Shown here: in pieces, positions 12,773 through 61,730 of the stretch
Layout of the letters: each line of letters opens with the position of its first letter
Numbering within the stretch: the stretch's first letter is position 1
Source of the DNA: Anolis carolinensis
Lineage: Eukaryota
Direction of reading: 5' to 3'
Assembly (NCBI RefSeq): GCF_035594765.1
Contig: NC_085841.1
Span: 333,693,402 to 333,757,401, forward strand
Length of the DNA stretch: 64,000 nt
The notes under the pieces: generated by a model
Told to the model about the DNA's origin: nothing
What the model saw: only the letters and a program-made list of their open reading frames with translations
Database searches by the model: none
Position numbers and translations under genes: made by a program

Positions 12773-13309
12773 CAGGGCCGGCCGGAGATATTTTTTGATG
12801 TTAAGCGGGGGTGCTGAAAAGCGCCCCCGCCACCGGCCCCGCCTCCCGCGCCCTGGCCCCGCCCAGCGTGCCCTGGCCCCGCCTCCCACGCTGCGTGGGA
12901 GGCGGGGCCAGGGTGAATAGTGAGGGGGGCGGGGCCAGAGTTGGCCCCGCCCCCCGCCCAGCGTGCCCTGGCCCCGCCTCCCACGCAGCGTGGGAGGCGG
13001 GGCCAGGGCACGCTGGGCGGGGGGCAGGGCCAGAGCTGGCCCCGCCTCCCACGCTACTCCCGCTCGCCCGTCTGGCCTTTTCTAGCAGGCCAGACTTCAG
13101 CGGAGGTCCCTCCAGGCCGCAATCGCGGCCTGGAGGGACCTCCGCTGAAGTCTGGCCTGCTAGAAAAGACCAGATGGGCCAGGGCGCACTAGGCGGGAGG
13201 CGGGGCACCGTCAGGGCAGTGCCCCGCCTCCCGCCCAGCCTGACGGCGCCCCCCCGGGCCTGCGCCCGAGGCGGCGGCGTCAGGTGCCTCAATAGTGGGG
13301 CCGGCCCTG
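12773..13309. mobile_element. Non-autonomous hAT (Tip100-like) MITE, 537 bp, GC-rich and multi-palindromic
   Basis: Perfect 11-bp TIR CAGGGCCGGCC / GGCCGGCCCTG. Perfect 8-bp TSD ATGTCAGC at 12765-12772 and 13310-13317. Confidence 0.92.
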
Positions 13310-56355: not shown

Positions 56356-57142
56356 TAAAACGTGTTATATCTTTCTGGAAATAAATTTCGTCTTTTTAGT
56401 AGCCCTCAGAATAGACCACCAGCCAGCTTAAGTAAAATGTTATTCCTCTGCCTGCATCTCCAGGCCAGCAAGCAGAGTTTGTCAAAGACAACAATGACAA
56501 CTGCAGTGGATAGACTAGGAAGCCATTTGTGGGAGTGTTCTGCCATTCCTTATCACCCAAGATTTCAACAAGGGCCAATGGATAATGACTGCTGAACTCA
56601 AGCTCTGCTGCAGTTGGACAGAGGAGCTGTTCATGTTAGTCTTAACATGACATAAATATATGGAAATGCTGCCAGAAGAACTTGTTTGTTTTTAGGTCGA
56701 GGCACCGTCAATGCCCTCAGGTAATTGGATCCAGTAAAGAAGAAGTAAAAAACATTGGCTGGCTTGACCTTTGAAGCTAACAAATTGTGTTGCAGTCTCT
56801 CCCAATCGCTCTTATTTATTCATTGCAATGGTTGTTTAAAGCTTGTTTATTTGGAACAACAGCTACAAAGGGAAACATTTATGTACTGATGAGCTTCCTC
56901 CTTGTTAAAGGAGATAGCTTTAAAAGGGCTCAAAGAGCTTTAATTGTAAGCAAATATAAGTCTGCTGGAAAAGTGATGAGTGCTTCTGAGAGAGTGGCCA
57001 TGTAAGCCTGTATTTTTTCACAAGTACAGATGGTAGAACAATTTCCCATGCATCCATGGACTGCTTCCTTTGCTGTCACTCATTTGTGATTTTTTACATC
57101 TGATTAATTCACAGACAGGATATTATTATTATTTTTATTATT

Positions 57143-57434
57143 ATTTTATTATGACACAGCAAACAAGATAGATATGCTGGATTTCGTTTCACAAAATCAC
57201 AAGTCGAACACTTCCCAAGTGTCTAGGACACCTGGGTGACGACCAGTATAGACTTTGTTTTGGTTTGATTCTCCATAATGCTAATGGGTTAGGTGCACTT
57301 GGTTTCACTCCTCAGCTGAGGCCTTTCTGGCTTGGTTGGACCTGCCGGTAGTTATACTACTGCCAGCACAGCCCTCAGTCATCATTGGAGTGGTTAAGCC
57401 CCCCCACCACATCAACGTGGCACCTGCGGGGAGG
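57143..57434 (-). mobile_element. Short internally deleted non-autonomous R4/Dong-like element (structured 5' segment plus 3' UTR)
   Basis: 57151-57229 is nearly identical to the 3' end of the adjacent element (57481-57559). 57230-57434 is a different, structured segment that starts exactly at the (TAA)n. The unit is bounded by (TAA)n on both sides. Confidence 0.75.
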
Positions 57435-57471
<37 letters not shown>

Positions 57472-57473
<2 letters not shown>

Positions 57474-58229
57474 TTATTGTATGACACAGCAAACAAGATA
57501 GATATGCTGGATTTCGTATGCCAAAATCACAAGTCGAACACTTCCCAAGTGTCTAGGACTGTGTGATGTATTTTCGGATGATGCGGGCAGATCCCAGCAG
57601 GGTGGCCTTTTGCAGTTGGCAGATCATAATTTTGTCAATGTCTATTGTTTCCAAATGCCGGCTGAGATCTTTTGGCACGGCACCCAATGTGCCAGTCACC
57701 ACCGGGACCACCTGCACTGGTTTCTGCCAACGTCTTTGAAGTTCAATCTTGAGCTCCTGATAGCGGCTGAGTTTTTCCTGTTGTTTCTTGTCAATGCGAC
57801 TGTCACCTGGGATGGCAACATCAATGATCCAAACCTTTTTCTTTTCCACAACTGTGATGTCTGGTGTGTTGTGTTCCAGAACTTTGTCAGTCTGGATTCG
57901 GAAGTCCCACAGTATCTTTGCGTGCTCATTTTCCAATACTTTTGCAGGTTTGTGATCCCTCCAGTTCTTTACTGCTGGGAGGTGGTACTTGAGGCATAAG
58001 TTCCAATAAATCATTTGGGCCACATAGTTGTGCCTCTGTTTGTAGTCTGTCTGTGTGATTTTCTTACAGCAGCTGAGGATATGATCAATGGTTTCGTCGG
58101 TTTCCTTGCACAGTCTGCATTTTGGGTCATCAGCTGATTTTTCGATCTTGGCCTTAATTGCATTTGTTCTGATGGCTTGCTCCTAGGCTGCCTTCTGTCT
58201 CCTTCTTCAGTGTCCCATTCATGAGCCAT
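57472..58229 (-). mobile_element. R4/Dong-clade non-LTR retrotransposon, 5'-truncated (CCHC knuckle plus restriction-like endonuclease)
   Basis: Encodes 'KCRLCKETDETIDHILSCC...YKQRHN...LWDFRIQTD...NTPDITVV...WIIDVAIP...EKLSRYQEL'. An upstream stop and frameshift inactivate it. Inserted in (TAA)n, the known Dong target. Confidence 0.92.
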
Positions 58230-59156
58230 ATTATTATTATTATTATGAGCCTACATGAATGATCTCAGAAGAGAGTCCCTTATGTCTGATTCCTTGCGTC
58301 AATTTTTGTTTCATATAACCCATGATGGTATAGGACTTTATCTTATGAAACTGGTATTTCATGGCAATTTCACAATCATAGACAGTGGATAGATATCTGG
58401 ATGAGCACCTCTGTTATTTCATCTCTCTCCATTTGTACAATTGCACAAATTCACTTAACGGTGGTCCTATGGTTTAACTTCAGGATATCCTTGTAACCCC
58501 ATCTTCCTGCACTTCAATAATATTTTTTTTAAAAAAAAAAACATTAACAGCAATTTCACAGTTTCAACAATAGTTAACAAAAAACATCAAATCACCAACA
58601 AATATAAATATCAAATTGCTCATAATTGTAAGGAGAAGAAGGGAGGAGCAAAGGAGAATGTCACCAGTGATGTCCCTTAACTGCTGGCATGCTGGTACAG
58701 AAGCAGAAGAGATCCATTGCACCAAGATAGGTGATGGAAACATTCCAGAATTGTGAGTTATTGATGGGTTTTACCCATCAATACAGGGGGACAGGTTAAT
58801 TGCTGAGAGGAGGCAGAGAGGCAGCAGGATGCATATGATGTCATGCGATAGGGACTTTCACCAATGGCAATGGTCCAGCTTCAGTGATAGCTTGGCTGCC
58901 TCCTGCAATAAAGTGCTTAGATTCCTTCACACCCAGATTGACCTCATATAAAAACAGATGTACATAGATGAACAGACCAATGCACAAAAATTCCTGAAAG
59001 CATGTAAGGTGGAAGTCTTATTAAGATTTGTGCATACCCCAAATTGGTAGCTTTTAAATTAAGAACTCAGCAAATTTGGGTTAGAGGTCACATTCTCAAA
59101 AGACACATTTAAGAGGCAGTCATTTTCAGGGCTGAAAGTGTATTATTTCTGTAGAG

Positions 59157-60737: not shown

Positions 60738-60740
<3 letters not shown>

Positions 60741-60781
<41 letters not shown>

Positions 60782-61730
60782 ACTTTATTTGTACCCCGCT
60801 AGCATCTCCCGAAGGACTCGATGCGGCTTACAAAGGCCAAGGCCTCAACACACAATATAACAATACAAAACAAAAGGCAAATTAAAAACAATTAAAACAG
60901 TATAAACAACAAGCAATAAACAATACGCTAAAACACAATAAAACTGGGCCGGGCCAGAGTAATGGGTACAAGATTAAAAGTGCTGATGTGACAGGTGATA
61001 TATAAGGCTTCTAGGGCAAGTGCAGAGTGCGATATACGATCTAGTTCTAATAAAGTGCTTATGGGACTTGGAGTTGGAGATTTCCTATTAATCTGGGAAG
61101 GCACATTGGAACAGCCAGGTCTTCAAGTTCTTTCTGAAGTCTGCCAATGTAGGGGCCTGTCTGAGATCCTTGGGGAGGGTGTTCCAGAGTCGTGGGGCCA
61201 CCACAGAGAAGGCCCTGTCTCGTGTCTCCACCAACCGCGCTTGCGACGCAGGTGGGATCACGAGCAGGGCCTCTCCAGATGACCGAAGTGAATGCATGGG
61301 TTCGTAGACGGAGATGCGGTCACGGAGGTAGGATGGTCCCAAACCGTTCAGGGCTTTGTAGGTAAGCACCTGCACCTTAAATTGGGCTCGGAAAGTAAAT
61401 GGCAGCCAGTGGAGCTCCTTGAACAGGAGGGTTGACCTCTCTCTGTAAGGGGCCCCAGTTAACATCCTGGCTGCCGCTCGTTGGACCAGTTGGAACTTCC
61501 GAGCCATTTTCAAGGGCAGCCCCACGTAGAGCGCATTACAGAAGTCCAGTCTGGAGGTGACCAAGGCATGGACCACCCCGGCCAGATCAGCCTTCGCGAG
61601 GTACGGTTGCAGTTGGCGCACGAGTCTCAGTTGTGCGAAGGCCCTCCCAGACATCGCCGACGCCTGAGCCTCGAGCACAAGCGATGAATCCAGGAGGACT
61701 CCCAGACTGCGGACCTGTGTAACCCCGTCC
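60741..61730 (-). mobile_element. Young 5'-truncated L2 LINE with an open ORF2 C-terminus, 3' UTR and (TAA)n tail
   Basis: Uninterrupted ORF ('VRSLGVLLDS...VHALVTSRLDFCNALY...LHWLP...RAFSVVAPRLWNTLP...FRKNLKTWLF'), many CpGs retained, and a possible TSD ACCTTT at 60735-60740 / 61731-61736. Confidence 0.93.

Follow-up and report, generated by a model that had tools for sequence, protein, structure and literature searches.

An HDV-like 5′ module and an inversion hotspot in a presumed R4-type LINE family of the green anole

Self-cleavage of the 5′ end is described for the R4 lineage, in which Dong cuts itself in vitro behind seven TAA repeats (PMC3774820). Among HDV-like ribozymes, a crystallised variant from C. 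briggsae cuts at U-1/C1 with a rate of 9.3 per min and builds P1.1 from a U:A and a C:U pair, and an Ackermannviridae variant has U:A and U:U at this place; both variants are attributed to Weinberg et al. 2015 in PMC13635239. A review counts G1 among the invariant HDV nucleotides (PMC8495972). The timing and manner of second-strand cutting by RLE LINEs are described as poorly understood, and both models for R2 put the top-strand cut after first-strand synthesis, either once the 5′ RNA has been stripped or after a template jump (PMC6895275).

The Anolis carolinensis element described below has in common with Bombyx mori Dong and Ascaris R4 its R4-type organisation, its TAA target and a ribozyme, predicted in the lizard, at the precise 5′ junction (PMC3774820). 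Dong cleaves behind its TAA leader, and the lizard family sits behind TAA too, with cleavage predicted; in the Dong primer, G is the first element base behind the TAA run (PMC3774820), whereas the lizard element starts with C and has a G22-C38 pair and a k-turn in P4. With the C. briggsae and Ackermannviridae variants it shares G25, a P1.1 of one Watson-Crick and one pyrimidine-pyrimidine pair and the general-acid C, and with the C. briggsae variant also the C at +1; the Watson-Crick P1.1 pair is U:A in both variants but G-C in the lizard (PMC13635239), which further differs from them by a P4 of ~90 nt and by heading a vertebrate LINE. The lizard module is closest to these C1 variants and lies outside the canonical G1·U37/C22-G38 subtype. 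As for the 5′ ribozymes of the RTE clade (Ruminski et al. 2011, as cited in PMC5786205 and PMC3774820), the same core is found on two APE-encoding families of this genome; the R4-type family, by contrast, carries it on an RLE element. The literature searched yielded no account of an R4 ribozyme from a vertebrate, of the G22-C38 variant or of an inversion hotspot in R4, and Ruminski 2011, Weinberg 2015 and Novick 2009 may cover the subtype or the inversions. The predicted ribozyme by itself extends a known device, the 5′ ribozyme of R4 and Dong, to a vertebrate element. We hold with good confidence an explanation that combines an R4-type HDV-like 5′ end, cleavage at the level of the family, a one-off deleted copy in the window and a second priming at +336.

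The element and its copies in the window

The window, a stretch of 64,000 nt, carries on its minus strand a short copy of 314 nt (57434-57121) located directly after the (TAA)n tail of a 5′-truncated copy of the same LINE (Table 1). The short copy consists of the 5′ 204 nt of the element followed by its 3′ ~109 nt. Its sequence-only reading as the representative of a short element did not hold, since the 5′/3′ junction, searched with a pattern allowing a gap of 0-6 nt, has a single match in the genome, the window locus itself. We therefore interpret the short copy as a single internally deleted insertion, which would have arisen by a template jump or by a later deletion. Membership in a mobilised non-autonomous family with a ribozyme head (SIDE or bipartite SINE) would agree with its bipartite anatomy and with the elements of this kind described for RTE, Ingi and R2 (PMC5786205), but it is very improbable given that the junction is confined to this one locus and that the breakpoints of other direct deletions (copies L011, L024 and L063) differ from those of the window copy; a SINE/SIDE family was rejected because of the single junction match. 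The window copy itself is not inverted. The deletion brings the start codon of the LINE in frame with its own stop, leaving a 17-residue frame, MENQTKTKSILVVTQVS (57276-57223, minus strand), probably by chance.

Table 1. Positions of the copies and of the parts of the 5′ module in the window
Feature	Position	Strand	Remarks
Deletion junction, last codons, 3′ UTR and (TAA)n tail	57121..57230	-	One extra base at 57230
Start codon and first LINE ORF codons (MENQTKTKS...)	57231..57276	-	Start codon 57276-57274
P2 3′ strand	57291..57298	-	G57298, bulged U57297, GCACCU
J4/2 ACCAA	57299..57303	-	C57302, the cytosine predicted to be the general acid (equivalent of C75)
P4 domain with box C/D-type k-turn	57305..57393	-	AUGAUGA 57385-57379, CUGA 57315-57312
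P1.1 3′ strand	57397..57398	-	C57398-G57413 pair; U57397 opposite U57414
P1 3′ strand G7	57399..57405	-	G57399 pairs with C+1
P3 3′ strand GGU	57406..57408	-	
L3, family UUGACGU, window UUGAUGU	57409..57415	-	U20 at 57415, G22 at 57413, C24→U at 57411, G25 at 57410
P3 5′ strand, family ACC, window ACG	57416..57418	-	C→G at 57416 breaks the pair beside L3
P2 5′ strand AGGUGC with top pair base C57419	57419..57425	-	
P1 5′ strand CCUCCCC (family CCCCCCC)	57428..57434	-	C57434 is +1; predicted cleavage immediately 5′
(TAA)n run	57435..57478	-	Ends the truncated copy upstream and served as target for the short one; gives U-1 of the predicted cleavage site
5′-truncated copy, same LINE as the short copy	57479..58240	-	CCHC knuckle and RLE-type C-terminus; its tail received the short copy

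A family search with the 5′ 165 nt as query returned 1906 candidates, and the 40 that were scored are 92-100% identical to the query. Longer loci of the family correspond to 3.67-kb elements in which an ORF begins with MENQT at an ATG located 14 nt past the fold, the distance from P2′ also found in the window. The family protein gives an RVT_1 match and a weak zf-RVT match, and the best PDB matches of its RT domain are R2 proteins. A PD..D motif in the C-terminus of the window LINE is presumably an RLE-type signature. The family thereby has the anatomy expected of R4, a single ORF with RT, CCHC knuckle and C-terminal RLE in ~3.7-3.8 kb; none of the 11 long family loci examined contains an unbroken ORF. 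TAA lies directly upstream in 19 of 21 non-inverted family copies (the TTA runs that end the 20 break loci considered further below are a property of how those loci were selected). Together with the target, this anatomy and a size comparable to the R4 clade entry reported for the green anole (3.8 kb, about 3000 copies; PMC5389967) lead us to infer that the element is an R4/Dong-type RLE LINE targeting (TAA)n.

Three further observations concern the repeats of the region and of the family. At 60739-61700 on the minus strand, the window contains the 3′ part of another LINE, which we take to be L2-like and whose (TAA)14 tail is free of R4 copies. Inverted and direct repeats, nested and 81-95 nt long, make up a GC-rich array at 12857-13206. 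Elsewhere in the genome, one R4 copy is split by ~2 kb of antisense RTE-like coding sequence (L034:970-2990).

Fold of the 5′ module and its covariation

The first 144 nt of the element form an HDV-like fold. In the family, the core reads P1 CCCCCCC, J1/2 GC, P2 AGGUGC-C, P3 ACC, L3 UUGACGU, P3′ GGU and P1′ G7, followed by CU, P4, J4/2 ACYAA and P2′ G-(W)-GCACCU, so that P1, P2, P3, P1.1 and P4 make up a nested double pseudoknot in HDV order at the family level. The P1-P2-P3-P1′-P4-P2′ order recognised in the sequence-only reading is thus correct, as are the segments that it named on the minus strand, CCUCCCC after (UAA)n (57434-57428), AGGUGC (57425-57420), G7 (57405-57399) and AAACCAAGU-GCACCU (57305-57291). 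Its P3, the hairpin CAC-GUUGAU-GUG, was one base off: base 57416 is C in 42 of 43 aligned copies and the G is private to the window copy, which makes P3 ACC/GGU and L3 UUGACGU. We rejected the CAC-GUUGAU-GUG register also because base 57419 forms the top P2 pair with G57298, and because metagenome relatives close P3 with A-U or G-C (82 and 17, respectively, of the 101 matches with a paired P1). The minimum free energy structure of the window copy prefers the rejected register, presumably because pseudoknots are not modelled and because the copy is mutated. The G1·U37 and C22-G38 features of the canonical viral and CPEB3 ribozymes are replaced by a first P1 pair C1-G37 and a P1.1 made of a Watson-Crick G22-C38 pair plus U·U.

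The pairings are well preserved in the alignment of the lizard family (43 copies, 42 distinct), with 96.4% of 1957 paired cells actually paired. The P1.1 G-C pair is found in all 42 distinct copies, and the P3 pair next to L3 is intact in 41 of them, the window copy having G·G instead. Within the fold, the window copy differs from the family majority at eight columns; one of its changes, C→U at 57411, is shared by 7 of the 43 copies, itself included. Of 42 copies, 40 have the k-turn of P4. Compensatory changes recur only at the base of P4 and are almost absent from P1, P2 and P3, and for this reason the family alone cannot prove P1-P3; our covariation evidence for P1 and P2 is drawn from other families.

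A search of the whole genome with the core pattern gave 1942 exact matches, and the reversed control gave 0. The 30 pattern loci that were read belong to the R4-type family and to two APE-encoding LINE families, which we take, with the help of PMC5389967, to be RTE-1-like (L038, L042, L048-L058, L062, L065, L066) and BovB-like (L068-L079). Across the three families P1 changes from CCCCCCC/GGGGGGG to CCCCCUC/GAGGGGG and CCCCAGC/GCUGGGG, and P2 from AGGUGC/GCACCU to GGAUUGU/ACAAUCC and GGAUCGU/ACGAUCC, while the top P2 pair, behind a one-base bulge, switches between C-G, U·G and U-A. The family alignment and covariation check that had been proposed thus came out on the positive side between families, where P1 and P2 compensate, and within the lizard family for the base of P4 only. 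One BovB-like subfamily has an apparently bulged 5′ strand in P1 (CCCCAUGC versus GCUGGGG). The k-turn test was positive in 11 of 12 BovB-like loci, in 0 of 10 loci of the RTE-1-like family, where the strict requirement for a four-pair stem bears on the result, and in 24 of 100 metagenome matches.

Beyond the lizard genome, at least 121 loci on metagenome contigs match the core pattern. Among the 120 analysed, 101 have at least 6 Watson-Crick pairs in P1 and 80 fold completely, counts that are biased upward because the P1 strand was picked by best pairing; likewise, conservation of L3 and CUU among the matches is partly by construction, as the search patterns fixed both. Phage matches obtained with a pattern without J4/2 have a paired P1 in 64 of 105 distinct cases, compared with a mean of 13.8 and a maximum of 25 in the swap control, and C-N-R-A stands just before a P2′ defined by pairing only in 27 of 30 phage folds in this motif-free test. 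When P1′ was left free, 44 of 84 distinct phage matches folded fully, 39 of them with C-G as the first pair, 4 with G·U and 1 with G-C. Among phage matches with a base other than G at position 22, P1 is present in 33 of 38 distinct cases; positions 22:38 read C-G in 14 (13 of these with G1·U37), A-U in 1, and C/U in 14 further cases that look like versions with a 6-bp P1 shifted by one base.

These variants bear directly on the probability that the pairings are a matter of chance among the homopolymer runs of an old repeat. The P1 of the lizard family is indeed C7/G7, the folding energy of this stretch of the window, taken by itself, does not reach significance (z -1.22), and Rfam at the gathering threshold returns 0 matches in the window. 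However, the heteropolymeric P1 and P2 variants of the other families and of phages pair in step, far above the swap control, which leaves chance with a negligible probability and supports the sequence-only proposal of an HDV-like 5′ module on an R4-type LINE. Rfam gave little more elsewhere: with the corrected P3 register, family copy L021 yields a weak match to HDV-F-prausnitzii (13.4 bits versus a gathering threshold of 44, E 3.9), and no ribozyme family was matched at E<=1 in 20 of the 121 metagenome loci. Rfam models miss the C1-G37 plus G22-C38 subtype, which LINEs of two clades and phages carry.

The phage relatives can be compared with the theta and minimal HDV-like ribozymes described from phages, with which the minimal forms found here share L3 and J4/2 and, at some loci, the company of tRNA genes; the theta motif is described with G1, whereas most of our phage relatives have C1-G37 (PMC10879173). 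No tRNA lies within 300 nt at 107 of 120 phage loci. Minimal C1-G37/G22-C38 folds are abundant among viral contigs (L202-L443) and metagenome loci (L084, L148, L161, L163, L176, L184 and L186), for the most part on large phage contigs. In these folds, the first pair and the P1.1 pair appear to be coupled, C1-G37 going with G22-C38 and G1·U37 with C22-G38. Several high-copy metagenome repeats (L086, L088, L089, L107 and related ones), some with a k-turn P4, begin exactly at the C+1 of the fold and probably come from animal host DNA. The P4 of L021 resembles that of another metagenome repeat, L123 (z 7.0, the best of 5 pairs with L021), a relative of which, L082, runs into an APE-like frame; this likeness to a probable RTE repeat hints that 5′ modules may have been exchanged between clades.

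Predicted self-cleavage of the family and of the window copy

We next consider whether this fold cuts. By analogy with Dong and with the C1-type HDV variants, the family RNA probably cuts itself where the (UAA)n leader meets C+1, which would free the element RNA from read-through host transcripts; we judge self-cleavage at the family level to be probable. All 43 lizard copies have the predicted catalytic C as well as G22 and C38, and in L3, U20 is found in 43 and G25 in 40 of the 43, both being kept in the window copy. Of the 19 collinear TAA-flanked copies, 12 begin exactly with the 7-nt P1 strand, 6 have extra C's and 1 is one base short. The caveats raised in the sequence-only reading, the missing G at +1 and a non-canonical L3 and P1.1, deserve comment here. 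The letter at +1 is indeed C, but a fast C1 variant is known (PMC13635239), so that the lack of G1·U37 and C22-G38 excludes the canonical subtype only. L3 loses much of its oddity at the family level, where the shifted P3 keeps U20, C24 and G25 and P1.1 is G22-C38 plus U·U. Neither caveat excludes activity, since C1 variants with a weak P1.1 cleave (PMC13635239). The literature searched contained no assay of the G22-C38 form.

The fold might alternatively form without cleaving, as a nuclease-resistant, protein-binding or translation-initiating leader, with an internal promoter setting the 5′ end of the RNA. Such a leader would make sense of the large k-turn P4 conserved in most copies and of an ATG so close to P2′, and HDV-like modules have been proposed as IRES and as protein partners (PMC6765202). 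We nevertheless consider it unlikely: the catalytic positions of the family are conserved as given above, the same core persists in phage versions almost devoid of P4, and of the 44 full phage folds 39 have A or U at -1 and none has G there. Leader roles are, moreover, compatible with cleavage. The non-catalytic leader suggested in the sequence-only reading fits the mutated window copy better than it fits the family. With G·G beside L3 and C24→U, the window copy is likely a weak, impaired or dead ribozyme; it need not be dead, since PMC3774820 reports a mismatch in the P3 of an R2 ribozyme.

A recurrent inversion breakpoint at +336-340

Among 45 loci that include the element's 5′ end, the 5′ piece is inverted relative to a 5′-truncated 3′ piece in 24, collinear behind TAA in 19 and neither in 2. 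The inverted 5′ pieces end at +330 to +344 in 20 of the 24 cases and run into (TTA)n or a degenerate version; all 24 start within 11 nt of +1, though presence of the 5′ end was what the 45 loci were chosen for. In the genome as a whole, the sequence breaks at ...CGCAC(A/T)ATTATTATT (+336-340) in 625 exact matches, against 350 that read through. The RNA at the break holds AUUAU, which is complementary to the (TAA)n end of the top strand. Two control sites behave differently: at +156, AUUAUG offers identical letters with 0 breaks against 1344 intact copies, and a site near +2030 with a better match to the target has 4 breaks against 1495 intact copies. Complementarity alone therefore does not explain +336, as the better-matching site is almost unused. 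In our view this fixed inversion site, with 625 copies against 0 and 4 at the controls, matters more than the ribozyme itself.

A second sample, made of the first 20 listed break loci not examined before, was selected for the break rather than for the 5′ end. It contains 16 loci with an inverted 3′ piece, 13 of which reach the 3′ end, and 4 without an inverted partner. The 5′ piece extends to +11 or nearer in 11 of the 20, and 5′ pieces reaching the first bases fit a defined 5′ end of the RNA. The 3′ pieces of the 16 inverted loci begin at 15 different places, and junctions often hold extra bases, with gaps of up to about 55 nt. The variety of 3′ starts, and the inversion of both subfamilies, led us to reject the re-amplification of a single inverted master. 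Nested insertion into an AUUAU micro-target was rejected as well, because the 3′ piece lies upstream of +1 and because unique DNA or the tail of another element follows the TTA run. In contigs of two other data sets, the same loose end is found at L032:616, in 23 and 11 records.

The simplest reading of this hotspot is twin priming; the architecture is observed, and the priming is its likely cause. First-strand synthesis would begin at the tail of the element, the top strand would be cut while the 5′ part of the RNA remains uncopied, and the (TAA)n end of the top strand would anneal to AUUAU at +336 and be extended to the first base of the RNA; joining of the two cDNAs would then leave +1 to +340 inverted against a 5′-truncated 3′ piece. 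Twin-primed L1 insertions likewise combine an inverted 5′ piece, a truncated 3′ piece and microhomology with the top strand (PMC2837659). Unlike L1, the lizard element encodes RLE rather than APE, uses one fixed priming site in hundreds of independent events, and has an inverted piece that often reaches the first bases of the RNA. In PMC11371274, twin priming appears in the reference list only.

Inversions could also stem from two RNAs priming both target strands, a dual priming that has been proposed for L1 with this same outcome (PMC2837659), or from a 5′ cDNA fragment captured by host repair. The frequent extra bases at the junctions would suit these scenarios, and accessibility may contribute to the choice of site, since +336 is predicted to be unpaired and +156 partly paired. 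Against them, the near absence of breaks at +2030 has to be weighed along with the origin of the two pieces, which share their subfamily in 23 of 26 scorable copies out of 40 (p = 2e-4; majority of seven 3′ markers, 10 of 40 copies without a site and 4 ties dropped), a concordance confounded by time of activity, as subfamilies active at different times would match even with two RNAs. One of the seven markers (2885) is discordant. Other versions of this comparison gave 23 of 24 at the single site 3287, which was picked after looking, p = 0.39 with tail length, a faulty marker, and p = 0.14-0.18 with two markers per piece, where 11 of 40 copies were scorable. Target-site duplications are indistinguishable inside TAA runs. 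On balance, we consider dual priming or repair capture somewhat unlikely.

Twin priming at this site implies early second-strand cleavage. We advance tentatively, and with a slight lean to doubt, a wider model in which the RNP would hold the RNA immediately 3′ of the 5′ module (at about +336) and beside the place of the top-strand cut, a cut that would come before the first strand reaches the 5′ end, and in which the C1-G37/G22-C38 form would be one widespread HDV subfamily of R4 and RTE LINEs and of phages, passed between LINE clades as a module. If this model is true, about half of the insertions containing the 5′ end arise by twin priming at a single fixed site, with copying up to a 5′ end made by the ribozyme, and hundreds of genomic copies record in vivo a second-strand cleavage earlier than in both R2 models (PMC6895275). 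The hotspot would offer a precise handle on second-strand cutting, a single mutable 5-nt RNA site, and such inversions would be unwanted in gene insertion tools based on R2 or R4. Our results also suggest that, in the lizard R4-type family, counting 5′ ends may overestimate the number of "full-length" copies.

Examples of the break are found at L004, L005, L019, L043 and L493-L512, and another one (L492) lies ~15 kb past the end of the window. Two inverted copies (L023:1440-1500 and L026:1480-1510) have tandem repeats of their first 20-30 nt at the internal junction, which suggests repeated template jumps at the 5′ end of the RNA.
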